A stretch of DNA of 57,586 bases, counting the filler, from Dugesia japonica (Eukaryota): the NCBI GenBank assembly GCA_001938525.1. It is 6 parts of 6 records of this genome, joined end to end, with 100 filler letters (N's around TTAATTAATTAA, not from the genome) between each part and the next. Parts side by side here need not be neighbours in the genome. Positions count along the whole stretch, not along the records: positions 1 to 9,923 come from MQRL01498127.1; 5 more parts are not named here. One strand, given 5' to 3'. Within the stretch, counting starts at the first letter, position 1; the number at the start of each line of letters is the position of its first letter. Positions 1-53,999 of this stretch are shown in pieces. A model generated the notes under the pieces. The model was not told the DNA's origin. It made no database searches and saw only the letters and a program-made list of their open reading frames with translations. The translations under genes and the position numbers were made by a program.

Positions 1-222
1 ATGTACTACACATCAGACGATATTGTATGCCCTCTATGCTTAGACTATCTTGAAATACACCGAATCCTAGAATGAAGACATTTCTTTTGCTTTAACTGTA
101 TACTCAAGACCTTCCTCCTTTCCAATCTAGATCTTGTCCCTTGTCCAGTTTGCCGTTCATGTAGAATAGATTCTTTCCATAATAAGAGAGTTTCTTTTAT
201 AAAAATACCACCCTNAAAAGTA
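1..222 (+). pseudogene. C3HC4 RING-finger domain relic (TRIM-like RING), about 1 kb upstream of a retroelement PPT
   Basis: Frame 1 reads MYYTSDDIVCPLCLDYLEIHRILE*RHFFCFNCILKTFLLSNLDLVPCPVCR. Spacing is C-x2-C...(C>TGA)-x-H-x2-C-x2-C...C-x2-C. The ORF track misses it because of the stop. Confidence 0.75.
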
Positions 223-1116
223 GGACAGCAACTTAGTATGTTACTAATCCTCAAAGTTCCTTTATTTAACTGTAAAAGAATTATATTACCAAGAGAATAT
301 CCCCCAATTTGGAGATCTGGTCGGAAAATACAATAAAATAACTATCCAGAGAGATCTCATATTAATCAGCCAAATACAAATGATATGTTCACGGTCAAAG
401 TAGTAAATCACTCTAAAAAAGACAAAGATAAAATTTAGCTCCATCTTAATAATGAACTAAGACGTTTCAACAGCAGAATAAAGATACCAGACCGCTTCTA
501 ATTTGTTAGGAAATTTCACACCACTAAAACCGCCTCACAGTTTAACTTGTTTCATAACAAAGATATATCATCCCATAGACTATACTACCAAACGGGCCGT
601 TATCATAATCTTCCTGTCGATGGTGAACAATAAAAAGCAATAATTTAATCACCAATTTTTAAAGTAGCAAATGAATTCGTTGCAGAAGTTCAATCAATAA
701 CAGCAGAAATTGTAGAAGCAGGACATGCAATCCTGTACGTTGACCAAAAGATCACTATGACTAAAATTAAAATTATTACCCAAAAACTATTAGGCGATCT
801 ACAAAAATATGCACTCCTATTTAAACATTATGAATAAAGATTATTATAAAGAAAAAGAAAAACAAGAATTGTGGATAATTGTAAAAAATCAATAAGAAAC
901 GAACCAAAAACTTACAACCTCACCAGACAAAGACAACCCCTTGAGATATTTTCAAGACCAACGCCCCCATACCCTACCTTGCCAAATATCGAAGAAGAGT
1001 TTAACCCTTGTATATTCAACGAGCCTGGCTCTAGTACAATACCCTCCGGACTACATGATAAAAGATGTTCATTCTTTACCTTATTCCTTACTCAAGATGC
1101 AGGTGCATCTTCTTTC

Positions 1117-1130
1117 GAAGGGGGAACATC
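1117..1130 (+). other. Polypurine tract of an LTR retrotransposon
   Basis: GATGCAGGTGCATC hairpin, then TTCTTTC GAAGGGGGAA CATC, immediately followed by TGTTGGAG. This is a typical Gypsy PPT/3'-LTR junction. Confidence 0.6.
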
Positions 1131-2265
1131 TGTTGGAGAAAATACCAACACATAAGCATAAATGCATACACATAAAACATATAGAACACATTTTAATCAA
1201 TCAATTCAAACCAAATTGAGTTCAAATCAAATCCATCAGATAAGCAGTTCCAATCAAAATGAATTATTATTCGATAATCGACAATTGAATATCGACTTTG
1301 AACATTATACTTTTATTCGATCCTGTAAATTTTGTGAACATTATTTGACTATAATCAATTGAATTGAATTATCCTATGAACATTTTATTTTTATTTGACT
1401 ATTCGACCCTGTAAACCTTGTGAACACTATATTATTTTTATCTTGTAATTAATCTTGTAATCATTTTATTATTAATTTTTAATTAATTGTAGTTTATAGA
1501 TATCAAATTATTTCAATATTTACATTACAATTTTGAAATAATTTTACATTATTATTGCAGTTTTGAAATATTTATATTATCACTGTAATTTCGGAATATT
1601 CGAATTTTCATAATTTTATATTACTATTGTAGTTTTGAAATATTTATATTAAATGATGGTAACTGTATAATTTTATAGAAAATTTCTATTTTTAATAAAT
1701 ATTTTATTGTAAATATATATAATTTAATTAATTTATCGTCTTCATTTTCTAGTATAAATACTGTAGCTTAATTCATAAAAAACCACCTTTTTTTAGCTGT
1801 ACAACAGTTTGGATCTTCTCGAGATTCACAACTGAGCTTAATTTTCTTACAAGTATTAAACGCTCAATAAGGCATTAATCTTGATTTGTACAATTGTCGT
1901 ATTTAATCATATATTAATTTTTCAAAAAGTAAATTTATTTCTATAATATAAGGAACACTATGTAGCATATTTAAATCGATATTGTTTTATCTATTATAAA
2001 TCTATTAAGGAATATAGTGTTGGGGTCCCGCCTGAGTCAAGTGGAAAAGTTTGTGGCTGCGTAAAAACAGCCCTCAGGGAGGCCCGTTCAAGAATTTGAC
2101 CTAACGCCCCTAGGGTAGGTTTTCAGTTCATAGCGGTTGACCCTTCTCTTAATAGGAGGTACGCACCTATAAACCTTTATATTCGGGTTCATTATTTTCC
2201 CTATCAGTATTAATGAAAGAAAGAAATTACGATTTTGAGTGCATACATTTTATTTATGAAAATTA

Positions 2266-2394
2266 TTATTGCAAATCCAGTGCCCCTGGATCTAACCACT
2301 GGTTTGTTTCAGTCACCAAGAAGTTGAAGGCGGCGATGTCATCATCGTCGTCCCATTGTGTCACAGTTGGGTTGCCTATTTGTCGGGATACACA
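2266..2394 (-). CDS. Acidic peptide / terminal exon of unknown function inside the LTR-like element
   Basis: CVSRQIGNPTVTQWDDDDDIAAFNFLVTETNQWLDPGALDLQ**, followed by AATAAA. A homolog lies at 5939-6094(+). Confidence 0.55.
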   Translation of the reverse strand, partial: CVSRQIGNPTVTQWDDDDDIAAFNFLVTETNQWLDPGALDLQ

Positions 2395-2603
2395 TTAACG
2401 CGAGCAAGATTAGAGTTTAAGGTGTCTAACAAAGATATATTAATTACAAAACGGTTTCTTAAATATTTATAGTTGGATTATTTCTATTTAAAGAGCTTTT
2501 GGTAATATCTAAAGAGCCCACAACAAGAAACAAGTATCTAATAACCACCCAAACATTTATTCTAATTTATGAAAATCAAAATGTTGTCACATTTGTGTTT
2601 TTT

Positions 2604-3014
2604 TTATGCTAATGAATTGGGTTCCATATTTTCTAGAGCGCCGCCACTAGCTCGATTTCGTAAATCCCACAAGATATTACCAAGATCTATGGAGAATCTG
2701 GTGTCTCTGGGGATGTGGGCGGCAGATACTAGCAACAAGGCGGGTCCGTCCGGCCACACACTAATGGTCTGGTTACTTACTGGATCGAGGATGGTGGTCC
2801 TATGTAACACTTCTTGAGTGCGATCAGGACCAGCCCATTGATAAAAAACTTGGCTCTCTGCTGCGGCCCATTCCATTTCGTTGTCCATGTCTTCACTGGA
2901 CAAGTTGGAATAATCCGTTAAAACACCTGCATTACGGTCATGCGGGTTCTTATATCTTTTAAATATGTTACGCCCTGAGCGACGGTCCCACAGTAGTTCC
3001 AATACATGGTCCAT
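2604..3014 (-). CDS. 136-aa orphan accessory ORF in the LTR-like element
   Basis: Intact, GC-elevated ORF preceded by a splice-acceptor-like TTTATTGTAG (AG at 3026-3025). Confidence 0.55.
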   Translation of the reverse strand: MDHVLELLWDRRSGRNIFKRYKNPHDRNAGVLTDYSNLSSEDMDNEMEWAAAESQVFYQWAGPDRTQEVLHRTTILDPVSNQTISVWPDGPALLLVSAAHIPRDTRFSIDLGNILWDLRNRASGGALENMEPNSLA

Positions 3015-3173
3015 TTATCCAGTTCTACAATAAAGAGTACTTTTTAACACATGAAATAAATTACAAGAATAATTTTAATAGAATTTAACTCCTATGAGCC
3101 AATTTAAAACAACAGGCACGAAGTGCTGATAATCAAATTTAATTTCATCGAAACGGTCTTTAGTCAAGGAAGT

Positions 3174-3356
3174 TCACTCCTCATCGAGATCCACTGGAAT
3201 AGGTAGGAGAAACATCTCTGCAAAGCACGCTAAATCTGTGTCATCGGGATGTTCGATTACGCCGTGCGAGAGTATATGAGCTAGCAACTGCCTATTTCGG
3301 ATTTTACCCCTTTCAATTCGAATTAATTCCAGCATTCTTGATAAAGGATCGGCCAT
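3174..3356 (-). CDS. 60-aa orphan accessory ORF in the LTR-like element
   Basis: ORF MADPLSRML...DLDEE preceded by a strong acceptor TTCTTTTTGTTTTTTTAG (AG at 3371-3370). Confidence 0.5.
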   Translation of the reverse strand: MADPLSRMLELIRIERGKIRNRQLLAHILSHGVIEHPDDTDLACFAEMFLLPIPVDLDEE

Positions 3357-5938
3357 GAGACTGGATAATCTAAAAAAACAAAAAGAACATATTTTGCCTT
3401 TATTTCACCCCAGAATTCAAAAAAATCAGCAAGTAATAAGCTCGGAACGGTCTCTCCCGTTAAAACTAACATCTCCCGGATGGGGCCTAGAACCCGTAAT
3501 CATTGCACAATCCAAGTAAAATTGAGATCTCTAACCTACATGATGCTTGTAAGTCAAACTTGTCATTTTAATTATAGTTAAATTAGCCATAATTGTGTGA
3601 ATTACTGGTACCAGCGTTCTTTAGCTGAAAACATAATTCTCCTCTTATTTATTATTTCATTTCATAACTTCACTCTTATTTATGCGAATAATAATTATGA
3701 AAATTACAGACAACACGGTCGAAAAAGTTTACTTGGCGTTGGTCATTTCTTATGAAATATTATGCCATTAAATTTTAACCTATAATAATCATAACTTTCT
3801 TAAGTAATTTATTTCACCTAGTGAATTTATCTAGAACTTTAATTTAAAAAAAAATTTATGCTTCATGTTTTTCAGGTCACTGGATGAATATAAGCAAGAA
3901 CCACATTTAATGTATCAGTTATTTCCTGTAATTATACTACACCTTGTTCAGGATCGGAATTATTTATTTGACAGTTTAATAAAACTTTATTTCCATTTGT
4001 AGAACACCGGCCTAATTTAATGGTGATTATATTAAATAATTAACTGATTGATAGTTGAGATTTAATCACAGTGTATTTCTAAAAACCGAGGTTATTTAAA
4101 TTATGAAGGTTTGGGTTTCCCTTGGTTACGAGTCAAGGTCGCGAAACTATAATCAATTCACTCCAGTTACTGTACTGGGTGTGGCGGGATGCTGTGTGTG
4201 TGATAGACGCCAGGCAAGTTAGTGAGCAGAATGCATGGAATCAGCGTAATTGCTATGATGTCAAATATTAATTGGTTATGCACAGTAGTTATTGATGTAA
4301 TGATTCGTGCGATTAGAAATTTTGATGCATGATTCAACCAGACCATCGGCGGTATATTCGGCTAACAAACGGGACAATGATACCTTGCATGATTAAGATT
4401 ACGTTTACAGTAAAGTATTGATCTATTACCACATCTACTGCACTTGCTCCAGAATTTTTCTTTAAAAATAAATATCAACAAAATGATCAGTGATTTCTGT
4501 CATTAGAGTAACACACCTGGTAGATATAAAATAAACGCCTGCTGGGAAGGGAGTGGATTTCTGTCTTTTCAAGAAAATAACTATTAGCAAGACACACATA
4601 CTACGTTAATCTAAAACACCATGGTTTTCAAGCATTGATTTATTAATAACAGCATTACTTATTAAATTAAGTTAACGTTGATACTTTCTAAAAATAGCAC
4701 TGGCTAGTTATCTATCATATACAGCATCCTTTATTCAAATGATTAAATCAATTTAAATTAACTACTTTTAGAGATTTATTTGAGATTTGTTTTATTTATA
4801 ACAAAGAATTAGTAGTAATATTAACATAACATACATTTAATTAACAATAACATTACTAAAAATTTATTCAAATGGATTCTGCAACGGGTTATTTCTGTTG
4901 TGAGCAAATTTCTGGTATGGTCTGCTGTTTCTTTTTGACGATTAATCTTCTTGGACGATGGAACCAGTTTCTTTTTAATTCTATCAATGACTTTGATTAA
5001 ACAATTTAACAGGGTTTCGACCTTACTAATTTCCCTTGATTAACTCGGATATTCGTTCCTGATAAAATTAAGTTTCGACTGTGATGTCTTTTACCAAAGT
5101 ATTCTTGGTAATAAGAAAATTAATGGTTTGTGGTTTTAAGATTGATGGTATATTATGGTATTTTTCTAAAATCGGAGGGTTCCTTTTATAAGATTTTAAT
5201 AACACCCAAACTTTGTCATGATTCGTTGATTATTTTTAGATCCACGTTTTTCTGCTGTTATTGGTTCCAATGCCAATTTTCTACAATTTNATTCTAGTTT
5301 TGGTGCCATGATTGGCAGCTATTTTTAGAGAGGCACCTGACAATTTGTTCTTTGTTATATTTTTTTAGGTCTCTCATTGGCCGGATCTTGGAAGCCTTGC
5401 CGCACCCTTCTGAAGGTGGTAAGTTTTTCTTTCCGATAATTCTTAATGACCCTTGTTATTTTCTTCTGGAATTTTCTTGTGCCGTAGTTCTGTGATTTTC
5501 CGAAGCAAAGTTAATCGCATAAAATGAATTTCGACCTCGTTTTATTTCATTTTGAAATTAAATTAATTAATATTTTCTCTTCTATTAATTAATTGTTTTT
5601 ATTCCGATTTTCTTGGTGTTTATTATTATTTAAATAATTCTTCTTAATTCTGATACCTACATGAGTGATTTTATACCACTGAGTTTGTTGAACCGACTTC
5701 GATGGTATTTTTAATTTTCTTTACCTGTTAATTTCCGTTACAAATTTCCGAAATACAATTGCTTCCTTCTTTGAATTCCATTATACGTGAGTTTATGGGT
5801 TTTACTGTTCCTTTTTGTGGATTCCGGATCTTTTGGTCATATTAATTTTCTTCGCGGGTGTTTCACCCCAACAATAGTATTAATTCTTATAACGAAATAT
5901 ATATTGGGATTATCTTACTATTTAAATTGAATTACTAA

Positions 5939-6094
5939 ACTCACGCATTGTTGACTTATCTTGGTCAAATACCACAAGGTATCTCAACAGTAACATGAAC
6001 CACTTGGAATAGTGACGATGATTCGGCCGCGTTTGATTTTACAAACGACGAACCCGCTCAGTGGTTAGACCCGGAGGCGATAGATGTTTTGTAA
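5939..6094 (+). pseudogene. Diverged copy of the LTR-encoded acidic peptide
   Basis: THALLTYLGQIPQGISTVT*TTWNSDDDSAAFDFTNDEPAQWLDPEAIDVL*, followed by AATAAA. Confidence 0.55.
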
Positions 6095-7439
6095 AAATAA
6101 ATGTTTCTTATAAATCACCCTTCTTTGTTTTAATACTCATAAGTAGAAGGGGAAATATTAAACCCAAAATAAATGAGTGCGAGCACGTACCCCAAGTGTG
6201 CGTTGGGAGTCAACTGCTCCATTCCAAAAACCTGACTAGGGACTTAAGGTTAAATTCTTCGTGGGGTCCACTGAGGGCTGATTCCCCCCAGCCATGACTT
6301 TTATAACACCCAATCAGATTGAACCCCAAAAAAATAATTAATTAGTCAATTAAACATTCTTCAATGTTCACATCTTTAAAAATGATTTAAACATTCTTAT
6401 AGAACACAAAGGTAAATAATTTGATAAAATAAAAAATAAAATTTAAAGATTATTTAAGTATATTTTTTTGATTTTTATTGGATATTAATATCGCATAATA
6501 AATTAATTAAACTTTCGGAAATTTTAAAAGAAACACGTTTTACTATGAAATTTCACACAAAATTCTTATTTCCCTATAGATTCATTTAATACTTTTTAAA
6601 ATTTCTAATTTCATTTAAAAGAAAAATATTTATTTATTGATTAGTAAAATTGATTGTTTCACCATGAAATTTCATGATTTTTGTAAAGCAATTCTTCAAA
6701 TGATAATTTATTTTCGAAATCAGAACAATTAGCTTCACAAATTTTTATTACAAATTAAAACTATGGAAATATATTATAAACTTTTCTGAAAGAGAAACAA
6801 AAAATTTATTTAATTTAATTTCAACAATTTCTATTGGTTGAAATTTTTTAATTATTTTTTAATTTTTCCTTATAATTCTAATTGATTTTCTCTACATATA
6901 ATAATCTAGCATGCTTAAAAAATTTATGTTTCAGTTTAATTTGAAATTAATGAAACTTAAATATAAAAATTAATTAATTAAGATCAATTAAATTGAAAAC
7001 TTTGTTTTAATAAGAAAGGGTTAAACTCGAGATAATATAAAATGAAATAATGAGGAATTTGCATAATGAAAATTGATGTTTTAATGAAGTTTAACATATC
7101 AATTCTATAAAAAAAAATGATAAAATTAGATTTATGTAAACTTTATTCTGTCACGTTTTAAAGGTTTTCTCATGTGATTACGTGATACAAATGATCGATT
7201 TATTTTTATTCATTTAATTCACAGTCATAAATAAATAAATGTAAATATTTAATAAAAAATTAAGTTTTTCAAAAATTTTTACATTCTTTCTACAAATAAA
7301 AAAGTTTACTAGTTCAAGATCGAACAATCAAAATAATTTCAAATAAAAACCATTATTTAACTAGGTATTTTATCAGTAGCAAGCCGTCCCTTAATCAAAG
7401 AATGTGCATAGAAAAAAATATTTTTTATAGACAGTGATA

Positions 7440-7650
7440 AGTAGATAGTGCAGCACTGGCTCAGTAACCCCCTGTGCTTGTGTTTTTAAAAAAATTTTTA
7501 AAATGTGATTTTTGAAAAACTTTAAAAAATATACGCTGTGCTTGAATTATTTTTAAAAAAATTTTTAAATGTGCTGGACATTTTCAAGAAAATTTGTAAA
7601 TTGTGCTTGTGTTTTTTAACAATTTTTTAAAATGTGCTCGTGTTTCGCAA
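7440..7650 (+). repeat. Polinton-like terminal fragment with subterminal tandem units
   Basis: AGTAGATAGTGCAGCACTGGCTCAGTAACCCC resembles the start at 9537. It is followed by TGTGCTTGTGTTTTTAAAAAAATTTTTAAAATG-type units. Confidence 0.35.
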
Positions 7651-8410
7651 ATATACAAAGGTATTGTTTTACAAACCTCCAACTTTATCTCAAGCTGACA
7701 GGATGTAGCGCCTGGATTACCGTCAATAAAATTGCATAAAATGTCATTACCAATCAGTGACAGCCAAAACTTTTTTGCCTTATACAGAAGGTCAAAATTA
7801 ACACTCTCGAATTTCATGGTAAAATACTAAATCACTTTATTCAAAATCTTATTATTATGTTCCTTTGCATTACCTATGATTGACAGGAATATATTACTTG
7901 TTTTGTTTTAATACAGTAAACCAAAACTACTTTGTTGTATTTTTACTACACGTATACCACACTAAGATAAACTATATGTACAGCCAAAATACCCTCTCCA
8001 AGATTTTACGTTTTCGTTTGTGGAGTTGCTGTCAAAAAATGAATATCACAAAAGGAAGGTAGAAGATATGGGAAATCCTAGAATAGTTCTTTCATACCAA
8101 CTTCACTGTCAAAGAAAAAATCACTTTTAAAGAAAAAAAATCATTTGCAGAATTTATTTTGAATTAAATCTTTTTATGAATCATATTTATACAAAAGAAA
8201 AGACAAAAAAGATACATATTTACCGTCGATATGGCATGCAAATGAGCTCTGCCAAAAGGGTTCACACCAACCTCCCATCTTTTAGACACCTCGTTTCTGT
8301 CTTATTCGTTCGTTTGCTCAGGATTTGCTCGACATAAATGCCTTCCATTACTCTCTTTCTTCCCGTTTTCTAACGGACCTCTTGTCGGCTTTGATTTCCC
8401 CACCAACCAC

Positions 8411-8815
8411 TCGACTTATTTGGCACATCAATTAGCTCATAAAGGAAAGTTTTCCAATGTTTTGTTCTTGGCAGATTATTATATTGACTGAATTATTATA
8501 TTTGATGAGCAGGGTACTAATGCAAATATGTATTAAATTAGGAATGCACTGGAAATAAAGAAAATAATATAATGAAATATGTATTGAAAAAAATAATATT
8601 TTGTAATCTGAACAACACTTTAATGTATAAGTATTTAATGTCGTAGATTACAAAAATTTATGATGATTATTAAAAGGTATGACAATTGATACTCGAAAAC
8701 ATAAATGAATTTGTTGGACTATAGAGAGCGCAAATCTTTCTAATAAATCAATAATAGATTTTGTGGATCAAAGTGATACAATGAATAACAAACAAATTAC
8801 AGCAATAGTGAGATA
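8411..8815 (+). pseudogene. Possible highly decayed parvovirus/densovirus-like SF3 helicase fragment
   Basis: STYLAHQLAHKGKFSN...*IIIFDE (Walker-B-like), later LLKGMTIDTRKHK...LSN (B'/C-like). Many stops and no intact Walker A. Confidence 0.3.
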
Positions 8816-9536
8816 ATCCCAAAAGAATTAAGTAATAATATTCTATCATTTTCAGGCTAACAGAAGTTTTAACGAAAATCGAAATAATTATCAATAAAAA
8901 GCATGATGAAAAGAAATAAAAGATAGAAATTGTGATGTATTTTAAAAATATTTATTATTTAAGTGTGGATGTCGTCTAAATTTTAGTAACTTTATTGCTT
9001 ATCAATAACATAGCGTCACGATCATTGCTGGAGGAACTTATTGACTAGTTAAATGAAAAAACGATATTTTCCAAGAAATTTACAATCGGAGAAAATATTT
9101 CTATTCATATTTACCGAATTCGAAAAAATTGTCGAACATAAAATCGGGGATCACTTTTGGTTTCCAAAGTATTTTACATAGAATTTTTCGAAAAATAATT
9201 TCATCTCAAAATAGGTATATTCGATAGAAAATATTTCACTGATTCTAGACATGGTAACTTGAAATCACCAAAGTTAGCCCTCGATGAAATAAATGAGGTT
9301 TTGTAGTGAAAAACTCAAATTTAATATTTTAGCGCTCAAAGTTCTGTGCACAGATAACAGCTATGGACTCGAATCTGACATTCTTGACCTCAGGAGGAAA
9401 AAGCAACTGTACAAAGTTAAAATATCGTCTCGGCAAAAATGCTTCTTAACGAAGATATAAAGCTGTCCTCCTAGATTCGATAACTTTTTTCAAAAATATC
9501 AAATGTAACTCAACATTTATCGAAATTAATATATTT

Positions 9537-9923
9537 AGTAGGTAGATAGTAGCGCACTGGATCAGACCCCATGTCAAGGTCAAATTTTTCCAAGGTCAGT
9601 GATCTAATATACTCAATTTTGATTGGTGGAATATTTCAAGGTCCAATGAATGTAAGTCAAGATTAAATGACTGTAGGTCAAGGTCATTTCCTTGAGAATC
9701 ATTAGTAGGTCAATGTCAACTATAATCTGGGTAGATTTAATATTATTATTTCCCGGGCATACCTAATATTATTAATCCTCAGCCGACTTAATATAATTAA
9801 TCTTCGAACAGACATATTATTATCAATACGCGAGCAGACTTAATATTAAAATTCCCTGTTATCTAATTCATTTTCTAATTAAATTCTCGAAATGAATCAT
9901 TTCCCCAATGATTCACATTTCTT
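9537..9923 (+). repeat. Polinton/Maverick-like terminal inverted repeat start
   Basis: Begins AGTAGGTAGATAGTAG ((AGT)n-like terminus), then repeated CAAGGTCA motifs and ~27-bp GAC(T/A)TAATATT units. It is truncated by the contig end. Confidence 0.45.
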
Positions 9924-12316: not shown

Positions 12317-15300
12317 ATGAACGGACAAGCATTTCTTGGCTGCAAAATAAGTCTTATTTCTAGAGCTGGAATACGTTATGAAGGAATACTTTATACAATT
12401 GATGCTAATAATTCTACAGTTGCTTTGTCTAAAGGTTTAATTAAACAAAATTGTTTCTAATTTAATATTCCTTTCGTTTTTTTTATTTCAGTAAAATCAT
12501 TTGGAACAGAAGATCGTTATGCTGAAACTCCAGTTCCGCCGAGAGATGAAATCTATGAATACATCATTTTTCGTGGATCAGATATTCAAGATCTTCATGT
12601 TTGTGAAGCTCCAAAGAAACACCCGCAAATTATGGCTCAGGATCCGGCAATTCTTGAAGTAAAAAAAATAAATACTTAACTGATAATTATTTAAAATTTT
12701 ATACTTTTACACAGATAACCGGAAAACCGCCAATTGCTACTCCATATTCAAGAAGAAGAGTTCAAGTAAATAGAATTTTATACTCATTTATTATTATTAT
12801 TATTATTATTATTACAATTTTCCCACTTAATATTATTTTAATATTTCAGTTTACGCCAAGATCATATCAAGGTATTGAGCAAAGTAATTTTTTCTTAATT
12901 TTCTTAAATATTTAGTATTAAATATCCTTATTTTCTACAAATTTTTATCTATAATTCCATTCACTAATTTATACTTGTTTGCTTATTTTTCCAACTATTT
13001 CGAAATATAATTAATCAATCATTCAAAAAATCCCAATATGTTTTAAGTTTAATATTTAAACGCTTTGTGAGAAGTTCATACTATATAGGCGTACTACATA
13101 GAAAAGTCAATTGTTAAATAAATAAGAAAATTAACTATTTCACAAAGGAAATGCAATATAAGAAAATCCAAACAAAGGTTTTAGCATTTTTATTAAAAAT
13201 ATATTCGTAGACCCAAATTTTCCTTTTACTGAATATGAATTGTTGGTGTGTGTAAATGGTTTTCTGATAATATTNGGCAAATTTTCTTTGGTTTTGAGAT
13301 TTTACACCCTGATAAAAATCTTTTCTTTTAAGGTGCAACAATGGCAGCAATACTTGAATTGGATGTATTTTCTATTTCATCATGATTATGATTAAGATTT
13401 GAAGGATAAAGGAAGATTTCTTTATTTGTAGAGTTGAAATAATAGACAACATAAAACAAAAAAAACAATTTTTTGTTATATTTTAAAACTAGTATTAATA
13501 GTGGTAATTATATTTAATATGATATTTAATGCAATTTTGACTGTAAACATATGTATTTTGGAGACGACGACATAAGCAAGTTTGATCGGATTCGAAATCC
13601 TTTTGAATTTCAGTTTACTGATTTAATTAGACAGGTACAAGTAGAACTGGTTGAATTAATATATAAAAGAACAATCCGCAGGCAGTTCAACAGAAAATCG
13701 CTGTTTTCATTCTGTATTGCATATTCTCAGGAATATCCACTGTTGTCAGATAAAGCTGTCAATGTTCTGTTGCCATTTGCAACGACTTGTGCGAATCAGC
13801 CTTTTCTGTGATTAATACCATAAAGACAAAATATAGAATCCAATATTCGTGTATGTCTGTCAAACATATAACCATGTTCGGACAAATTCTGCAGCACTAA
13901 ACAGGCACATACTTCACATTGATCAAGGATTTATTTCAATTTTAATAAATTCTTAATTATTGATTTTAATATAAATTTTTTATCTTATCTAATAAATTTT
14001 TCATATTTATGAGCAGTATCCTCAGAATAATTTATTGGCACTAGTCATTTTAGTACACGTCTTCCAATTTAATTTATGAACTTTTATGGCTTCATTTNTG
14101 GGTATGGGGCTCGCTATATAACAATCACATGCCGCGGAGTTCTGCAGCTTGTAAGAGTTTGAAAAACACTGATATATGGCACTCAGTGCAGCTGAACATT
14201 TATTGCCTCTGAATTTTGCTTACTGCATTTATGTCTTATAATAATTGTCACTAAAATCATTAAATTTTGTGTATGCTCCTGGTTTTTTCATTATATTATA
14301 AAATGTCTCCTCTTTCAACCATATAATATTTCTTTTACTTGTTTTATTTGATTCACATAAGATTAGTTAACTTTCTGTATAGACCTTATTGTGGCCCATA
14401 TAAATGTAAAGATTATTTATTATTAATGATTAAATAAAATAATTCATTTAAAATAAAAGCATCTATCAAAATTTTGTTTTTTGTTTTGAGATTAATTCGA
14501 TATTTCGACTTTGTCCTCGTCAGGAAATGAGTCAAAGTCAATTCCTGACGAAGACAAAGTCGAAATATCGAATTAATCTCAAAAAAACAAAATTTTGATC
14601 GAAGCTTTAATTTTAAATGAATTCTAAAAAGGATTAATGGTTACGCCCAACAATTATTCTCGCAATAATTGCAGTTGTTAAAATGAATAAAATAACTAAA
14701 TTAAAATAAAATTTTTATCGTAGTATAATTGGATTTCGATTTTTTTTCACAGACGATGTATAATATTAATAAATAATTTTGCTTATGTATATAATTAAAA
14801 ATCTATATAAATATATAATTTTAAAATGTGTGTCGGTCATTTCAGAATACAATTTTTGTTTAATAAATGCTAACCTCAACATACTTCCTTTCTGTCAGTA
14901 GTAAATATTTCAAAATTTAAATTTTGCATTAAATTTTTTTTGAAAATAAATTAATACATCTATACTAATATATAGCATACTATTATATAAATATACTATT
15001 AGTTATACAAAACATTTGCGTGATATATTATTTGAACGTGACCCATTGGATTAGAAACAGAGCTTTGGAAGACCTCGTATTGATAATTAGGATGAGCTAC
15101 TGACAGAAGTATTCAAAGCCATTTTTAAGCTCCGCTTCAGCAACATTTCAGAAGAGAAATTTTTCCGAAGAATAAAGTTCAAAGAATTGTTTCAAATGAA
15201 CATTTCAGATTTGTCCCCAAAAGAATATGTCCTCTTATTTCAGATTATTGATGTGGTGCCGAAAACATCGTCATAATGCATGGGGGAGATATGTGGATAT

Positions 15301-16960: not shown

Positions 16961-19336
16961 TTAACACTAAAGCTAAGAAAATTTCATGTATTCCTATTCC
17001 TACCGTGAGCAGTCATATTAGCGCTAAAAAAAAACATTTATCCTTATATAGAATGATTTTTTACCCAATTAGATAGTAAACAAATATTCTCTTTAATTTA
17101 GAAAAGTTTTATTTTTCAGCCCATTTTTTACAAATTACAGGATTTTTTATTGAGCATTTACTACATACGTTTTTTTTACATTTTATGCACATCGTGTTAG
17201 TTTTATTGACTTTACAATATATTACTTGACACACTTACCGTCCAGGTGAATCTATAGTTGTATTTGCTATTGGTTTTGATAAANATTCTTTGTTTAGATG
17301 TCTTTTTCTGATGATATATCCCAATCTCTTCTGTCAATTGAAATAAAAATTATTACCTCAAAATTTCTTCACCCGTCGTTTCTTTATATAAAATCCAAGC
17401 ATTTATCCTGGCTAAATCTAAGATATTGAAAAATATTAATAGAGTCCATCTTTGAGATTTAGATTTCACACTATATTTTCTTACCATTTGATTGGTTACA
17501 TCTATACCGAATTTTGAACTATTGTAAAATCTAATTGTCTCTGGTATACTGGCATCACATTTTTCTATTTCAATAGAGGAATGCATTGAACTAAGTATCA
17601 ATACTTTTTTTATTAGGCATAAGTTTGTAAATTGTAAGAGTAAGATTTTTTGAATTATATAATATTGTTGATAAACGCGTCATACTATATTTGTCTGTGT
17701 CTCCAATTTTGGTAGCTCTCTTCTATTTTTCTGAACTGCTCCAATGTGCGTAGATTTATTTGCTAAATGTTTATTCGCTAATGAGACATTTGTAGAAAAA
17801 ATTATCAGTTATATTTCTCATAGGGCCCGTAAATATTTCAGGTAATTTCAAAGTCACTGAAGGTTCTCTCTCTTCATCTTTTCCTAAATATGGAATGCCG
17901 TTTAGAATATACTTACTACTTTCATTGGAAGCCAATCAAAATTTTCTGCCAAATTTGTCATGTATTGAGTAAATCTGCAATGTACTTTCGTTGGAAACAA
18001 TTGTTAATCTATCGAAAGATATGCTCCTGACTTATAACAGTTTTGACTGCTCACATTAAACTTGTATCAAATTTCAGAGATCAAAGCGAATGTTTTTTTT
18101 GTAAGCGTTGACTTCGTAGACCTTTGTTTTCAAACCGAATGAACCTCATAACTTCTGTAAATTTATTTCGGCTCATAGTTTTCGACAAATATGGACCCAA
18201 ATTTTAGACCCATTGACTGCTAGATAAATATGATATATCTATATTTTAGCCTCATATGCAAATAGAGGTCCTATGAATGTATATAATTTTGCAATATATA
18301 AATCCCATTTCGTTTTCAACACTGTAAATGCCTTTAATTCGTGTATTTTCTTACTTGCTCAATTGTGTTATGATTAATAATTAAGGAAAATGCTGACTCA
18401 ACTCTAATTTTCGTAAAATTTTGTTTAGTGTATCCCGTTGGTCCTGATATTTTCTTGAAAATATTTTAAATTGGTGCTCTTCCACAATTAGACCATTCTT
18501 TTATTTTTGCCGAATAGTTCTGTTCGTAGCAGTTTCAATATCTTTTTCATTTTAACTTTTGGAACAAATTATAAATCTCTTTCTCTTTTGTCCACTTCAT
18601 ATTCAAAATATTCTCTTCGCCTTTATTGCTGTCATATATTGCTGTTAAATATATCACAATCATTTCTAGTATATTATTATCCGTATCAGAAATTTCCTGA
18701 CAATCTTCAGAACAATCCTCGTCGATATTATTTATTTTGACTAATAAAGTAATACTCCTCAAATTTCTTGACATTTTTGGGGTGAATATACAAATGATAA
18801 AGTAAAAACTAAAATATATAAATGTAAATCAAACGGGGAAAAACATTGACAACACAAATACAAAAGGTTCAATTGTAAATCATAAGTGATTAATACATTA
18901 TAGGAGATAAAGGCAATGGACTTTTAAAATTGTAGGAATCTAGGTTATGATTACTAATTTCATCTGTCAATTGATCTGAGTTATTAATCAATTTAAAATA
19001 TCACGGTTTGAAAACTTAAAAAATTTAATCCTATAATAAATATGTTTTTGTTCACCTCTAACAAAAATATTTTCAGAAATGCGTTTTATATAGTTGAAAA
19101 TAACATAAATTATTCAAATAATCAAATGACCGCTCGTGGTAGGCTAGACACTCTATGAATTCTTTTTAGAAATTAAACAATAAGAAAATTTGTAAATATT
19201 AAAAAATGTATGTAAATGCATGTATACTATAAGAAAAATCAGTAAGTTACATGGCGATACAGTAACATTTGATACAAGTACTTCTAAAAAAATTCAAAAA
19301 CGGTTCCTTGACCGCACATGATAGGTTGAGTGTTAA
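16961..19336 (-). mobile_element. Decayed piggyBac transposon (PGBD4-like)
   Basis: FYNSSKFGIDVTNQM..YS.K....RW..IFFNILDLARINAWILY, a Cys-rich C-terminus at about 17150-17240, an acidic N-terminus at 18547-18774, and TTAA-CAC termini. Confidence 0.85.
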
Positions 19337-19673: not shown

Positions 19674-20172
19674 TTCAGTGGGTAGTCCAAATAATATTGC
19701 TGAATATTAACAATTTTATCTTTGCTTGCTAAAATCTGAGAAATTAATTGGGAAGTGTTACGTAAAAATTATGATAATCCAAAAAAAATGTTCAGAATAG
19801 TTTTCTTTTGCTTATAGATTGTAGAGTTTGTTACTATGAATTTTGTTTTAACTAATCAATTTTTTGAATAAAACTTACAAATCAAAATTTAGCAGTTCAT
19901 TTCAACTGAAACTAAGAAATACATTTTATCTAAAAATTGTATATTTTCATTGACATCAACCAACTGCTATGTAAAATTAGGCATTATAAGTGGTCTGAAG
20001 TACGAAGAATTAAGCGAAAAAATAAACTAGGAAACTTCATTTCGATAAGATATTATTTATAATTTATTATTTAATCTATTTATTATTCAATTTAAATTAT
20101 TTTATTTGGAAATGCAAGCCTACATAAATACATAAAAATTAGTTGAATTAAAAATCCAAATATAATTTAAAT

Positions 20173-20768
20173 ATTCATTTAAAATAAAAGCTTCGATCAA
20201 AATTTGCTTTTTTTGTTTTTGATAACAATTCAGAATTGTTATCGAAATACAAAAAAGCAAATTTTGATCAAAGCTTCTATTTTAAATTATATCTAAAAAA
20301 GCAATCAATGGTTAAGTCCAGCAATTATTCTCGCAATAATTGTAATTGTAAAATATTTTAAATAAATAATTTTATTTCAATAGTTTATTTCAATTTTTAG
20401 TATTATTCTGATTTTTATTGCTAATGTGTAAAACAGAACCAAACAATTAGAAAAACCAAAATTATTTCCAAAAATAATTTTTCATTGTCAACTTAATTTT
20501 ACAATTACAATTATTGCGAGAATAATTGTTGGACAAAACCATTGATCGTTTTTCAGAATTCATTAAAAGATATGCTTCGATCAAAAATTTATTTTTTTTT
20601 TTGATAATAATTCAAATTTTTGACTTTTTATTAGTCAGGAATTGACTTTTTTTGTAATTGAAAAATTTGTAGAAAAGTCAACTTCTGACGAAGACAAAGT
20701 CGAAAATTTGAATTATTATCTAAAACAAAAAATGATCCTTGACCGAAGCTTATCTTTTAATGAATTCT
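20173..20768. repeat. Two further inverted Penelope-like pLTR hairpins; hammerhead core retained at 20681-20714
   Basis: AAAGCTTCGATCAAAATTT arms are homologous to 14441-14682. The core reads CTGACGAAGACAAAGTCGAAAATTTGAATT. Confidence 0.65.
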
Positions 20769-21026
20769 TAATTTTTAACTTTAAAGATATTACAAGACAA
20801 TTATACAAATATTTAGAACATAATTTCACTAAAAATTTACAAACTTAAGTTTTAATTTAATTAAAACATTTAGAAAAATATTAAAAATAAATAAATATTT
20901 AAAATTCTTAACGTATGATTACAATAACAATAAAATTTTTAATTAAATTAATTAAGGTTATTATGTATGAAATTATATGAAATTAAATTATGTATGAATT
21001 TATTATGTATGAAATTTACTGCTTAC

Positions 21027-22139: not shown

Positions 22140-24355
22140 TTAAAAAAGACTTTTTTGTAGGTTATAAAGATAAACTCGCCAATTTAGATATCTAGTCAGC
22201 TAATTCGATAGTGTCTGATGACAAAGACGAAAGAATTCATATAAGATTTTACAATTTATCAAATTCCAAAAGAAAAAATTATAAAGGCACAAGAATGGGT
22301 AGTTTAAAAATCCGGGAAGAAAAAAACGAGTTCATCAGAAATATTTAATCAGAAAAATTAGAGGTGTACCATGTAAACGGATTGATTGATCGAATCAAAA
22401 AGGGAGATGACATTCCTTTAAAATATAAAATAAAGGTTATGAGATTAATAATAAAATGTGCTAACTTATTTAGTCAATGCGACACGGATATTGATCATTG
22501 TAAAAAACTAAAGCATTACATTGCCACTAAGTAAAGAGCGCCGGTTGAGCTTCCACCTATACAAATACCGATAGAACTTGAGAATAAAGTTGATAATTTG
22601 TTTGCAGATTTATTGAAAAAAGATGTTCGGGAAAAGTAAAAGTCCGAGGAATTCACATTTAGTGGGTATCATTAAAAACAACGGGGACATAAGATATGTG
22701 TCCATTACCATCAGTTAAACTTAGTCAGAATCAGATCAATATATCCAATTCCAGAAATTTTTCTGCATTTTGATGCACTGGATGGAGCAAAGATATTTAG
22801 TGTTTTAATGGATATTACAATGTCGAAGTAAATAAGGCGGATAAACAAAACCAACATTCTCTACTAGAAAAAGGCAGTATAAATATTTTAAAATGCTATT
22901 TGGACTGAGTTCAGCCCCAGTAATATTCCAACGACTAATGCATATGATATTGCAAAATGAAAATTGGAAACAATGTTCTATTTATCTGGACAATGTTTTG
23001 ATATTTTGAAACTCGTATGAACAAAGCTTCAGTCGGTTGAAAGTGGTTTCAGCTAGAGTAAAAGAATTGGAAGTTAAATTGAAACCTGACAAATGTAATT
23101 TTTTGATAATGGAAGTTTCGTATCTGGGACAAAGAATTACGGCAGAACGAATAAAAACAGATCCAATAAAAATAGGAAAGTTCGAAATTGGTCAGAACCA
23201 GGGCGTTACTCAGATCTTTATTTATTTTAGCTTTTTGTAATTATTATAGAAAATTCATAAAAGATTTTGAATATGTCGTACAACCTTTAGAAACTATACT
23301 AAAACAAGGCAAACAAAAAACAAATGGGAAATACAGCAAAAAACAAATAATTTGGGATGCTGAAGGAAAAGAATCATTTAAAAAGATAAAGGAACTTCTA
23401 ATCACAGTTTCAGTAGTAGCTTATCCTTTGAAAGACACAGATGCAAGTCACAGTCATATTGGAGGAATCTTAAGCCAAGTTCAAAATTGAAATGAAAAAG
23501 GTATCGCATTTGTCTAAGAAGCTGACAAATTCAGAATTGAAATATTGTTTTACTCGTAAAGGATTATTAGCTGTCTGTTTTTGTGAAACAATTTAGACAT
23601 TATTTATTTGAGAGAAATTTCAAAAAAAGAACTGATCATTAAGCATTATTGTGGGTGAAAATTTGAAAAATCTCAAATATGTCACAATATTTTATTTGGA
23701 TCACAGAATTAGAGGAGTATCATTTTGATATTGAACACTGACCTGGCAGATTACACATTAACACAGACTATATAACACAGACAATACCCAGCCATAATGA
23801 ACCAAAAAACGAAGAAATTTGAAACTGATCGAAAAAGAAAATGATGAGTAGCCAATTATTAGATTTTTAGAAATGATTTCACGTCTCCAAGAAAAACAGA
23901 AATAATGGAATATTATCATAACAACATAAATTATCCAGGATTTATAAAGACAAAGGAATTAATTTAGAATTATTATGACTGGAAGAATATGATTAAAGAG
24001 ATAGAAAACTTTATTGATAAGCGCATTCCATGCATAAATCGAAAGAATGGAATTATTTCAAACCACATTTCTGAGAAGCATTTTATAGCTAATGAGGCAT
24101 TTGAAAAATATGATTAGATATCACTCGACCATTACCAGAAAGTATAGGATATAGATACATTTTAGTAGTAATATATCTCTTCTCAAAATATGCCATGTTA
24201 ATTTCTCTTATAGACATCAGATCGATATAAGTAATGAATAAGTTATTTAAAAGATATTTTGGAAATGCTAAAAGTTATTCACTCCGACAACGGAAGTAAT
24301 TTTAAAAACAATTTTATCAAAGAATTTTTTAAAGTTCATCATCAAGGGAATGGAT
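22140..24355 (+). pseudogene. Decayed Ty3/Gypsy pol (RT-RNaseH-integrase)
   Basis: FGLSSAP..FQRLM, IYLDNVLIF, FCNYYRKFIKDF, TDAS...IGGILSQ, an HHCC relic and IHSDNGSNF occur in Gypsy order. Confidence 0.9.
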
Positions 24356-25789
24356 TAGTATTTCAAATACCAAAAATGTTAGAAAAATCTTCAAACCAGC
24401 GTGTATTTGAATTTATTCACATTGCCATTCAAGACATGGGAAAAATTAAAAGTGAAATAGTAAAAACTAATCAAAGTTTAACAAATAAATCTTTAAACTC
24501 TAATAAATTCCTTCAGAAATTCAAGTCGAATTTTGATACTAGCAAATGCCATCAAAGCACCTCCTATGAATCAGGGCTTACAAACCTTACTGAAATGAAT
24601 AATATAATGAACACAGAACTCGTCAAAAAAATATTCAGCGGAAATAACAAACATCAATTATTTAAAATTATTCTGGCTTACATGGGCCAGATCAAAATAG
24701 AAATCCTATCACGAAGCCAAATCATGGATATTTATGAAGAAATTATGAACGCAGAAAAATTCAATGATTTTTACATCACGTAGTAGTTCACTAATATCTT
24801 ATTAAAGAATTACAAAAATAATGGATTCGATATCTCTCAGAACTTCTTAAACTTTAAATTATTTTTAATTAAAAAAATAAAGTTAATTTCAAAAAATCCA
24901 AATTTTTAAAATAAAATCAACTTAAAAGGATATATTACAGACTTCTACAAAAAAGATACAAATTTTATCGAAAAATTTAAAAAATTTCTTCTATATCCAT
25001 AATAAAAGCTATTCTAAAGATTGAAAAAATCAAAACAAAAACTTGACGAAAAACTTGAACATGTTTCAAAAACTAAAATTCATTCTGAAAAATATACAAA
25101 TTCTGACAGAAAAATTGAAAATAGTATTAATTTTAAAAATGCAGTCGACAAAGATGAAAAATAATTTTAAAAATCCGACTAATAATTTAAAATAATTTGG
25201 AAAATTTCAATCCAATTGAAAATTTCGAAAATAATAGTAATTTTAATTGTTCCTTGTACAATGATTCAGAAAACTATAAAAAAATTAAAAATTTGACTAA
25301 CAAATCAAAGAAAATGGAAAATATCAGTTAAATTGAAAAATTAAATCATAAAATTTTTAATAATATTGAAAATTTAAATTTTCTTAATGGTATTATAAAT
25401 GAATATTTAACTGAAAAGAATATTGATAAAAATAATATTACAATTGAACTAGTTTACGGCAAATATGATAAATTTCAAGATTTAAAAGCTTTGAAAAAAT
25501 AGAAAATACCAAAGATATAGAACTGATAATAACGAATCAATTGAAAGATATCAAAGGTAAAATATTTCATAAAATTACTGAATTATTAAAAAAAATTAAA
25601 ACCTCAAAATGAGGATAAAACTTTCAAAAGAGAAATATTAAAAATTGATAGTAAAAAATATTTGAAAAAATGAAAATTTTAATATATCAAATAATTGTGA
25701 AAATAAAACAAAATTTGTTTATATAGTATTCCAAATTCCAAAATTTTTCGCCAACATTTTCATTATTATTATTATTATTAAAGAGAGCT

Positions 25790-29507: not shown

Positions 29508-30592
29508 TATTATTCTTTTATTGATTTGCCACAAAAAATTCCCCGAATCAACCTGTCTATTTAATTTACCTCACAATTATATTGCCAAGAAAACGGCAGC
29601 GGAAACAAATCGCTAGCTTGTAAAAATTCATGTTGAACATGCATCTTCAGATATGACATGCAAGAATTAGTTTTATCGACTTAGAAATGGCGATTACAAA
29701 ACCAAAGAATAGAGCTTGGAAAACGATCAAAAGATTTTGAAAATAAAAAATTGGCAATGTTGATCAGGCCACACACAATCTGAACTGGCTGTTGCATTAA
29801 ATGTAACCCAACAACATATTTCATAAAGTCTACAAGGCATGAAAATGAATAAAAAATTTGGGAATTATGTTCCACATGTATTGACAGAAAGAGACATTGA
29901 ACGAAAACAATTTGTGATGTTCTTCTTTAGAGACAGAAAAGAAAATGTTTTTGTATGGATTCACTATCAAAATCCCAAACGCAAAGCAGCTTGTGTGAAG
30001 CCAGATGAATCCAGTATATCAACACCGAAACCAAATATCAATGGTTCAAAATTAATGTTGTGTATCTGGTGGAATCATAATGGTGTAAACTATTATTATG
30101 TGCTAAAACCATCGAAAACCATAACTGTTGAATGTTATTGATTGTAATTAATTCGTTTGAAGCCAACTCTGGTTTAAAAGAGACCAGAATTAGAGAAAAT
30201 ACATTCACGATGATTTTGCAGCATGATAACGCTAGGCCACAGGTTAATTCGGTTCTTACGAATTATTTAGGAGTAAACTGGGAAGTCTTACATCACCCGC
30301 CGTATTCACAGGATATTGATACTTCGGATTAGCCTTTGTTTCATGCAATGTAATCAGTATTTTCTGCAGAGTTGTTCAATTCCGATGAAGATATTTGAAT
30401 TTTGGTAGATAACTGGATTACTTTTAAAGAGCTACAATTCTTCTTTTGTGGAATTCATTCGTTACTTGAATGATGGGCAAAGGTTGTAGCTTCAAATGGA
30501 ATTTATTCTGAATAATGGATTTTAAATAAAAATTTTAAAGTAACTCTTTGTTTTTTACTCAAAAAAGCCGGAGTCATATTTGTAAACTTAAT
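29508..30592 (+). mobile_element. Decayed mariner (DD34D) transposon
   Basis: YVPHVLT, WIHYQNPKR, KLMLCIWW, QHDNARP and HPPYSQDI..SD motifs, with a 3' TIR ending CTTAATA. Confidence 0.9.
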
Positions 30593-32408: not shown

Positions 32409-34590
32409 GTACTCTCATATCTCAATTTAACGGACTTAAAGAGAGGAGTGTGTATCCGATAAATCCGATTGACCTTAGATTCTGAATTTTATTTTATTTA
32501 ATCAAACCGACAAAATTTTATTAATAAATCTTCAATTTAAAAACCAATTATCAATACATTATAAAAATACATGAAATATTTTGGGGATTAAAAGAAAACA
32601 AAGTTTTTAAAAACTTTGTATTAAAAATCGAGTTAAATTTTAAAATTATTAGAATTCATTTAAGTTTTAATTTTTCGATCGTATTAGTTTAGAAATTCAG
32701 AATTAAATTCTTTCGAGAAATAATTATTCAGAAAATTCTAAATATCGGTTGGTGTTTCTTTTGAAACGAGTGAAGATGAAAAAATCGCGTTCGCTTGATA
32801 CCTCAACTGATTGAGAAATATGATCGGATTTTCTAAAAAAGTCCAATGTCAATTGTTTTCCTCTTTTTGACCTTTCCTTGATTATAGAATCTCGAAAAAT
32901 TCGCATATTTTCATAGTAGGCACTAAAATCACTATTTTTACTATATTCTATAACATAAAAACTAGTATAAATAGAATTTTGAATTTTTGAAAGCTTTGGT
33001 AGTTAAATCGGCTCTTCATTATCATNNNNNNNNNNNNNNNNNNNNNNNNNNNNNNNNNNNNNNNNNNNNNNNNNNNNNNNNNNNNNNNNNNNNNNNNNNN
33101 NNNNNNNNNNNNNNNNATTCTCATCTAACAAAGTTTGAACATCCTCCAAGGTAATATTATTCTCACCTATATTATGTAACATATGAGGAAAATCAGTAAA
33201 TTCGATACCTTTTAACTTGTATTCGAGTTCAACATCAATAAGTAGTTTTTTTCCAGCTATTTGCTAGAGTAGACATTTTCAGATCTTTCCACGTTTTGTC
33301 AAAGTTTAATATAGCTGATTTAATAGTATCATTGAGCATATTTTGAAGGGATCTTAAACCTCTTGCATCATTTTCTGTATCATATCGTTTTCTATGACAA
33401 CTATAACTTCATTTAAATAATGCTTTTGATATCTTCTTTTGCAAGCACTAATAACACCTAGGTCCATTGGCTGTACTATCAAAGTGGTGTCGAAAGGTAA
33501 AAACATTGTACAGATTTTTCGTATGCTAATCAACTTATCTGCGCTTGGATGAACAGGTACATTATCTAAAATACGAAGAACTTTTCATAATTGGCATTTA
33601 TGTANNNNNNNNNNNNNNNNNNNNNNNNNNNNNNNNNNNNNNNNNNNNNNNNNNNNNNNNNNNNNNNNNNNNNNNNNNNNNNNNNNNNNNNNNNNNNNNN
33701 NNNNNNNATGAATTGGCAAGTTGTTCATACAATCTTTTAAAGCTCGAGGACGTGCTGATTTACCAACCACAACTAATTTATTTCTATGTGATTCATCGGA
33801 ATTAGCGCAACAAAGTATAGATATTCTTTCTTTAGAAATCTTTTTTTCCCTTTAGCCGTTCTTCATCTTTACTTGTCTGTGTATTTTAAGGCAAAGAGCG
33901 CAAAAAGAGCCCAGTTTCATTGGTATTATATTTCTGAAACTGCAAAAGCTTTTCTTTACTTATAATATCATGTAAACTATTTTGATAATGTTCCGCATTA
34001 GGTACATCTGTACTTCCCGCCTCACTCATACTAATAATATCACGCAATCCATGTCCGTTACGAAAACGCGATAGCCAACTATCACTTGCACCACAATCGA
34101 TATTTAAATGCTTACTAAGTTTTGGACATGTATCGCGTATAGATCCAGAGGCTATATTTGTACCACCAGCTTTTTTTGTACGTTCCATTTATACACTATT
34201 TCAAATAATTCTTTCTGGGCATCAGTTTTCATATGTTTGTGTGATTCCACAGATACTGATTTGCTTGAATATCCGTCAACACAAAATTGCAAAGAATAAT
34301 TCACAAGTTTACATTTTGATTTTAGAATATCAGAAACTGTTTGTTTTTTTACTCCATATTCTTCACATATTTGTTTAACACATGCTCCATTCTACATTTA
34401 ATTAAAGATTTCTTACTATTGTTAAATTTACTCTTTTCTTTTTTTTCTGGTCTAACTTTTTTGATGCCATGTTATATAAAGAATATTTTATTTAAATAAT
34501 CAGATTATATTTAGCAAATAATTAAATCAATTTCTATATACACACGTATTTCGGTTTAACGAACCCTTATTCAACGGATTTCGAAAACTG
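32409..34590 (-). mobile_element. Decayed pogo/Tigger (Jerky/TIGD-like) transposon
   Basis: CENP-B HTH (ASDSWLSRFRNGHGL), YNTNETGLF and FLP..TT..VQPMDLGVI motifs. Ends are approximate. Confidence 0.85.
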
Positions 34591-51693: not shown

Positions 51694-52003
51694 TTTCTAA
51701 ATGTAAAATGTTGATATCATTTTCTAAATTATCAATACTATTATTTAAATCATCAATTTCATTATTTAAATGTTCGATNNNNNNNNNNNNNNNNNNNNNN
51801 NNNNNNNNNNNNNNNNNNNNNNNNNNNNNNNNNNNNNNNNNNNNNNNNNNNNNNNNNNNNNNNNNNNNNNNNNNNNNNNNNNNNNNNNNNNNNNNNNNNN
51901 NNNNNNNNNNNNNNNNNNNNNNNNNNNNNNNNNNNNNNNNNNNNNNNNNNNNNNNNNNNNNNNNNNNNNNNNNNNNNNNNNNNNNNNNNNNNNNNNNNNN
52001 NNN

Positions 52004-52492: not shown

Positions 52493-52549
52493 TTTATATA
52501 AAATAAAAAATAGCCACGAAGATTGTTGAATGTTAACATGTAACATGTT

Positions 52550-53994: not shown

Positions 53995-53999
53995 TTTAA

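Follow-up and report, generated by a model that had tools for sequence, protein, structure and literature searches.

The locus

The window analysed here, a stretch of 57,586 nucleotides of Dugesia japonica DNA, holds an insertion of 3,856 bp (hereafter the element) at 2018-5873 on the minus strand, which splits the long terminal repeat (LTR) of a related retrotransposon (the host) and is itself likely a solo LTR with small genes inside. The element is located within the first piece of the window (1-9923) and contains a single N, at 5290. Contigs or reads of 4 of 24 listed sequencing runs were aligned to window positions 1-6600 at 88% likeness.

The host reads on the plus strand. Its internal region (1-1155) is a decayed frame with an N-terminal RING finger, which runs through the purine tract into the LTR; it has 8 stops against a minimum of 20 in shuffled sequences (0 of 1,000 shuffles), and its zf-C3HC4 match (E 4e-4, 20.6 bits) falls just under the Pfam cut-off of 21. 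No Pfam match to BIR was found in 1-1155, only 1.1 kb of the interior being in the window. The polypurine tract, GAAGGGGGAA at 1117-1126, stands 4 nt ahead of the TGT at 1131 with which the LTR starts, in agreement with an initial annotation of the window that had placed the start of a flanking element right behind such a tract. This 3' LTR, 1.34 kb in total, consists of a left part (1131-2017, with TATAAATA at 1753) and a right part (5878-6331), which holds a homologue of the element's frame C at 6005-6094 followed by AATAAA, and which has lost the terminal CA. The left edge is marked by a contig of run X8 that matches from 1131 and diverges upstream, and by seven contigs of run X2 that diverge at 1142; at the right edge the depth drops from 294 to 7 past 6380.

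A precise insertion in reverse orientation

The 5' terminus of the element, TGTTGGGGT (5865-5873, minus strand), forms a 9-bp inverted repeat with the 3' terminus, ACCCCAACA (2018-2026, minus strand), which in turn can be aligned with the end of the host LTR near 6331; read on the plus strand, TGTTGGGGT is found at 2018-2026 and ACCCCAACA at 5865-5873. The target-site duplication ATAG flanks the element at 2014-2017 and 5874-5877. An empty site is present in the DNA run X2, where two contigs join 2013 to 5874 and skip 3,860 bases; the short side of the joint is 91 letters long, and the four letters of either ATAG copy are ambiguous, fitting both flanks. The empty site is either an allele or another copy of the host element, and other host-copy contigs bridge the element from 2017 to 5882, 5895 and 5896. 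Because the contigs show an empty site with this four-letter ambiguity, the insertion is precise, and the ends at 2018 and 5873 hold together with the ATAG duplication. The same cannot be said of the termini by themselves: 9-bp inverted pairs starting in TG with a 4-bp duplication occur five times in the window, compared with 0-3 times in each of 10 shuffles. Such end patterns also turn up by chance, and therefore the termini are no proof in themselves; the joint at the empty site is. The initial annotation had located the termini, the ATAG, a TATAAAA, an AATAAA and the purine tract correctly, and its proposal of an exact, integrase-type insertion is supported by the joint in X2.

The element has the TG...CA termini with a short inverted repeat that a solo LTR requires, and its 4-bp duplication, backed by the empty site, lies within the 4-6 bp expected of solo LTRs. 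Neither terminus is repeated within the element, and CCAACA is likewise absent from its interior. A Pfam scan and a repeat search detected neither another LTR nor a primer site or pol in its interior, and no reverse transcriptase, integrase or transposase was matched in Pfam among its frames, as had been claimed earlier for the first and the last of these. A search for tRNA genes found none, and Rfam gave one match only, far under the gathering score. Among viral contigs, 0 of 235 pattern matches were confirmed and none matched the element terminus; motif matches in metagenomes were rejected, all three loci being 20-nt chance matches in DNA of 51-57% GC.

Kinship with the host LTR

Positions 2377-2020 of the element (minus strand) align to host positions 5976-6329 (plus strand), about 360 bp against about 355 bp, with 61% identity and a score of 121, where the best of 50 shuffles reached 65.5. 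The homology to the end of the flanking element that had been proposed is thus real, over a length of about 360 rather than 380 bp. The LTR matched is one preceded by an internal coding region and a purine tract, and the match is confined to the 3' 360 bp or so. The simplest reading is that the element is likely the solo LTR of a family related to the host LTR. The earlier suggestion that it is an LTR stands as far as its 3' end is kin to a bona fide LTR end and no terminus is repeated internally; its 5' part is not alignable. No pol linked to either LTR lies within the window, the pol remnant at 23176-24783 being beyond two assembly gaps.

Small genes inside the element

Judged by sequence comparison, the shared 3' end of the two LTRs is protein-coding and conserved. 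The element carries genes, two of them well supported and up to three more possible, since one frame (C) is conserved at the protein level and another (B2) has a relative that starts from the same Met; on this point the gene-carrying element of the initial annotation is borne out.

Frame C (2266-2355, minus strand; open from 2394) is a conserved acidic C-terminal block that ends just ahead of the likely poly(A) signal. The block at 2355-2266 matches host 6005-6094 without a gap over 30 codons (tblastx E 2e-8), and against host 6005-6091 16 of 29 residues are identical, eight of them through different codons. The mismatches are distributed over the three codon positions as 12/8/20 (P 0.02). Shuffling of the columns gave 7.7 ± 1.8 identities and reached 16 once in 20,000 trials, for a block that was picked after inspection of the alignment. 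The stop codon is in register in both LTRs, with AATAAA 1-11 nt beyond it.

Frame B2 (2604-3014, minus strand) is an intact gene of 136 amino acids, not assigned to a family. None of 500 shuffles was as open, and the length of its longest ATG frame was reached by 5 of 500. Its relative, P0006, was the sole match in 1.84 billion protein representatives (E 1e-11); 33 of 78 residues are identical (42%), starting from the same first Met, and P0006, a singleton, comes from an ENA contig of 512 bp. A word-indexed protein search confirmed 0 of 31 candidates for B2 and gave none for frame C; repeated with the B2 alignment, it confirmed 1 of 151, which was P0006 itself. No PDB sequence matched the B1-B2 region, and two AlphaFold models of B2 had a predicted local distance difference test (pLDDT) of 41.2 and 41.6, values too low for the models to be usable. 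A lead to the SET domain (Atlas 0.90; 129 of 256 features, against 170 typical of true members) was dropped, P0006 being without that C-terminal part.

The remaining three frames, all on the minus strand, are in poorer condition. Frame B1 (3075-3356), 93 codons long and interrupted by one stop, is likely a small gene, and a strong T-rich AG stands at 3370/3361 ahead of its ATG. Frame A (4167-4503) is a possible decayed Cys-rich gene, weak, with one frameshift and one internal stop; a T-rich AG stands at 4517 shortly before the ATG, and the depth is not raised. Frame Z (4856-5309), another weak and possibly decayed gene, has at least three breaks and no Pfam match, and 20 of 500 shuffles were as open. 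Four of the five candidate frames are broken by stops or frameshifts, and Pfam gave no family at the cut-off for any of the five. The GC content is 37-48% in the frames and 22-30% in the spacers, and 3 stops interrupt the stretch 3404-2607, where the lowest value among 1,000 shuffles was 11.7 (0 of 1,000 as low). A T-rich AG within 35 nt was found for 3 of the 4 starts tested and for 12 of 65 ATGs overall, in a comparison made post hoc.

Depth among relatives

The contig depths given here are sums and do not stand for copy number. They amount to 35,181 at 1981-2200, 7,793 at 2201-2420, 46,442 at 5281-5500 and 2,413-3,283 at 5501-5940, compared with 74-150 in the interior spacers and with about 16-22 where the depth is that of single long contigs. 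Both element ends are plainly common to far more relatives than the interior is. The bins of B1 and B2 rise above the spacers to 351-1,201, the highest value being that of bin 3081-3300 in B1. A DNA variant without 2731-4624 (1,894 bp, comprising frames A, B1 and most of B2) occurs in runs X2 and X8. Its joint from 2730 to 4625 was rejected as a splice, being present in the DNA run X2 and having no GT..AG ends on either strand.

Promoter, poly(A) signal and RNA

Two motifs are candidates for a TATA box, both upstream of the supported genes. The first is the TATAAAA chosen in the initial annotation (5669-5675, minus strand; position 199 of the element on that strand), which is present and yet not beyond chance, with five copies of TATAAA in the element against 6.4 ± 2.4 in shuffles. 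The second, TATAAAAG (5183-5190, minus strand), may be inside frame Z; its position, 684 nt from the 5' end, resembles that of the host TATA, 622 nt from the start of the host LTR. The candidate at 5675 would serve frame Z, and sequence alone does not choose between the two. Three sense CCAAT boxes (5380, 5315 and 5264) stand ahead of the second candidate, at 5260-5380 on the minus strand, around a core of about 45 bp (5298-5342), a cluster reached by 54 of 2,000 shuffles. The core itself comprises a CCAAT box, an ATG at 5309, a 6-bp inverted repeat and what we take to be a MEF2-like site. It recurs in a great number of relatives that differ in other respects (bin depth 46,442), and loose ends at 5298, 5340 and 5342 are among the best 17 of 604.

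The likely poly(A) signal is the AATAAA at 2249-2254 (minus strand), 236 nt from the 3' end and 11 nt past the frame C stop, with a host counterpart at 6096-6101. The motif chosen earlier is in itself unspecific (15 copies in the element, against 8.4 ± 2.9 in shuffles); what speaks for it is its conserved place just past the stop in both LTRs. Since coding sequence and not a TATA precedes AATAAA in both LTRs, the promoter would lie upstream of frame C. Behind the signal follows a U5-like tail of about 230 bp (2018-2248, minus strand), common to very many relatives, as the depth of its bin (35,181) indicates; U5 folding was no better than in shuffles in either LTR (z -0.30 for the element tail). 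An ATG-free stretch at 5219-4853 was rejected as a leader (P 0.07), as it may be frame Z instead, and a sigma-70 promoter scan was set aside as inapplicable to a eukaryote.

In the raw poly(A) RNA runs X16 and X19, two of the seven raw RNA runs listed, the depth was zero in 16 of 16 bins over 1981-5500, and read starts or ends formed no pile-ups. The reads used (13.6 million and 11.6 million) are about a quarter of each run, the two runs share only the species label with the best-matching run, and the stretch has no expressed control. Elsewhere in 1-6600, 53 reads of X16 and 2 of X19 matched, all of them partially and none at 99% likeness. At host positions 5933-5989, partial X16 reads from related families match, and 20 reads leave at 5989; this segment folds as a hairpin of -15.7 kcal/mol, a value calculated without a shuffle control. 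Run X8, RNA by guess, has contigs across the stretch and was rejected as evidence of transcription, as it contains the empty-site and deletion joints. Among the 24 listed runs no RNA run is recorded as containing the stretch, a blank to which no weight is given. In view of the limits of X16 and X19, and since Gypsy-related elements of planarians are silenced by PIWI (PMC8532177), the family may be expressed elsewhere. The earlier view that the solo LTR still expresses accessory proteins finds no support in a copy with broken frames and zero RNA depth; the present copy is most likely a silent, decaying relic.

Proposed origin and alternatives

On balance, and with modest confidence, we favor the explanation that this precise, reverse-oriented insertion into a related LTR is the solo LTR of a large Gypsy-type retrotransposon carrying small genes. 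A full element of this type would have integrated backwards into the related host LTR by means of its integrase, and recombination between its two LTRs would then have removed the interior and left the solo LTR behind. The LTR would be long because the small genes (two supported, three possible) are carried inside it, where they would be read from a promoter in the first 700 bp to the AATAAA near the 3' end. An active LTR may have been laid out as a short U3, a gene-bearing R of about 3 kb and a tail of about 230 bp, and a single leader may have been joined by splicing to a T-rich acceptor shortly before each of the small genes. In the 5' LTR of the active ancestor, use of the LTR's own poly(A) signal would have yielded the accessory mRNA, and read-through the genomic RNA.

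There are, however, several points that weigh against this explanation. An R of 3 kb means a long strong-stop DNA to copy. The 5' 3.5 kb of the element has no detectable homology to the 5' part of the host LTR (score 70.5, with shuffles up to 87), no paired copy around gag-pol was seen among contigs that are short pieces, and no loose end at 2018 or 5873 is among the best 17 of 604. The two promoter candidates conflict, the TATA at 5190 falling inside frame Z; no transcript start, splice junction or poly(A) site is backed by RNA from X16 and X19; and each of the frames Z, A and B1 is weak when taken singly (P 0.04, 0.18 and 0.09, respectively). Finally, downstream of the TATA of the host LTR no ATG is in frame with frame C, an absence that fits a last exon spliced from upstream.

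The genes of a solo LTR could instead be housed in a very long U3, like sag of mouse mammary tumor virus (MMTV) and nef of lentiviruses, and be expressed from the 3' LTR by splicing from the upstream promoter of the full element; transcription would then start near the 3' end, and the solo copy need not express anything. We regard this as unlikely, even though the arrangement is already known (PMC2664473) and needs no 3-kb R, frame C of the host has no ATG of its own in the LTR, a TATAAA is present at 2181, and the solo copy gave no RNA reads. The motif at 2181 is downstream of AATAAA and not conserved in the host alignment, neither LTR has a TATA in the interval from the stop of frame C to AATAAA, and the CCAAT cluster, 500-600 nt from the 5' end, belongs to the block that is common to the most relatives.

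Also doubtful is a non-autonomous derivative, either a full element deleted twice, so that the start of its 5' LTR, a 3' accessory region and the LTR end remain, or a DNA unit moved by an integrase-like transposase in the manner of Ginger1. TG..CA ends with a 4-bp duplication fit Ginger1 too (PMC6839031), and accessory open reading frames (ORFs) are internal in the giant Gypsy elements of planarians (PMC6431247); the host LTR is matched by the 3' end only, and the DNA variant without 2731-4624 makes the interior appear deletion-prone. Against a transposed DNA unit, the inverted repeat has just 9 bp and there is no transposase; against a deleted element, the direct repeat expected after one deletion in an element with two LTRs is missing, and the conserved 3' block has no purine tract with a TGT ahead of it. 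Moreover, frame C lies inside the host LTR, past the host's purine tract, so genes do occur within the LTRs of this group. A short LTR swollen by unrelated nested insertions, with frames due to chance, is highly improbable: the DNA is AT-rich and decayed, three of five frames are weak and none has a Pfam family, but a true relative of B2 exists, conservation of frame C extends to the protein, 3404-2607 has far fewer stops than its shuffles, and among 15 of the 22 joints there is one deletion joint and no clean insertion-type joint inside the element.

A broader proposal, which we regard as less likely than not, concerns a whole group of animal elements of Gypsy type. Such a group may have shifted small accessory genes, between one and five in a cassette that varies, into that portion of its LTR which is transcribed. 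Each LTR, the many solo LTRs included, would then be a multi-gene unit complete in itself. In the 5' LTR, the outcome of poly(A) signal against read-through would decide between accessory mRNA and genomic RNA, and solo LTRs might go on providing the proteins even when the rest of the element has been lost.

Significance

Solo LTRs tend to be regarded as leftover fragments of promoters. In this case the end of the LTR encodes a protein block conserved across two LTR families that are only 61% alike, and the long form of the LTR adds at least one further gene that belongs to no known family. If the promoter of the LTR and its poly(A) signal enclose the cassette, solo LTRs would be mobile gene units. 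A cassette in the transcribed part of the LTR would also mean that repeat annotation hides unknown protein families and that reverse transcription must handle an R of about 3 kb. If the genes are in U3, they would be an invertebrate parallel to MMTV sag and nef, which is less surprising and still notable. The copy at 2018-5873 looks dead, which limits its import.

Other features of the window

The window is stitched from pieces, and therefore linkage across the spacers is uncertain; identical spacers (44 N, TTAATTAATTAA, 44 N) stand at 9924, 19574, 29408, 38434 and 48410, about every 9.6 kb. At 48708-57364 there is a cluster of long minus-strand frames that is Polinton/Maverick-like in look, with a protease-like frame at 51274-51696 (Peptidase_C5, E 0.067, under the Pfam cut-off) and, at 54109-57088, frames that look polymerase-B-like by eye and have no such Pfam match. 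The LTR-retrotransposon pol remnants at 23176-24783 gave RT_RNaseH_2 (E 1.3e-4) and rve (E 0.06), both under cut-off. Fragments at 17353-17679, 29827-30141, 33886-34188 and 41190-41528 are, by eye, presumably like the transposases of piggyBac, mariner, pogo and Tc1, respectively. A dispersed family resembling miniature inverted-repeat transposable elements, with internal inverted repeats of 54-108 bp, is found at 14433-14682, 20164-20771 and 40267-40536.

Comparison with known systems

In the literature covered, we found no description of a conserved sense-strand multi-gene cassette in a Gypsy LTR, a coverage that leaves aside the primary Burro papers and Repbase, which may already describe these LTRs. 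The names GLT and GLT2 are presumably those of LTR-type Repbase entries. The planarian GLT/GLT2 probes (PMC8532177, supplement) had no match to six short motifs of the element, as far as motif matching over the first 400 letters or so of the excerpt goes. To call the element an undescribed system, as the initial annotation did, is an overstatement, since LTRs of more than 3.2 kb (PMC3485330) and ORFs within LTRs (PMC2664473) have been published.

The giant Gypsy elements of planarians, Burro and GYPSM1, are among the closest known systems. Burro interiors reach 25 kb in elements of more than 30 kb in total, and these elements share with the present one implied multi-kb LTRs and accessory ORFs (PMC6431247), as well as an AT-rich genome with Gypsy and Polinton-like neighbors, a likeness by description and not by sequence. 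The accessory motifs expected of Burro/GYPSM1 are RING/BIR, BCL2 or MATH, and the decayed RING finger of the host, just under the Pfam cut-off, may be a counterpart. As far as covered here, PMC6431247 describes no genes inside the LTRs of these elements, and the host LTR of this window is only 1.34 kb long. Among plant elements, Ogre has LTRs of 1.9-6.5 kb (PMC6431247), and Retrosat2 of rice has an LTR of more than 3.2 kb with a predicted 2-kb R containing several AATAAA and, behind a CCAAT motif, a TATA some 230 nt into the LTR from its 5' side (PMC3485330). Retrosat2 is thus a precedent for a 5'-proximal TATA with a multi-kb R, and its group (Retrosat2/RIRE3/RIRE8) has 429 solo LTRs against 162 complete elements (PMC3485330). 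In contrast to the element, however, these plant elements have, in the text available, an extra ORF0 upstream of gag-pol and not genes between LTR promoter and poly(A) signal.

The terminal inverted repeats of Ginger1 span tens to hundreds of bp, whereas the element has 9 bp only. It also differs from Ginger1 in that it has no Gypsy-integrase-like transposase, which a non-autonomous copy would lack too, and in that its end shows homology to an LTR located behind a purine tract. The two are alike in their TG..CA ends and 4-bp duplication, and in GingerRoot the terminal inverted repeats are 100-150 bp long (PMC6839031).

Coding frames within an LTR are known from MMTV sag, lentiviral nef, bovine foamy virus and HML2/3/4/8, and the HML frames are located after a TATA-bearing module (PMC2664473). 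There are differences as well: sag and nef lie in the 5' third of the LTR (U3), and the HML frames are mostly antisense, without a Met start and of near-chance length (PMC2664473). Retroviral and HML LTRs measure 0.5-1.3 kb (PMC2664473), whereas the present LTR has several sense frames, one of them conserved right up to AATAAA. The features assembled in the element are each known elsewhere separately.

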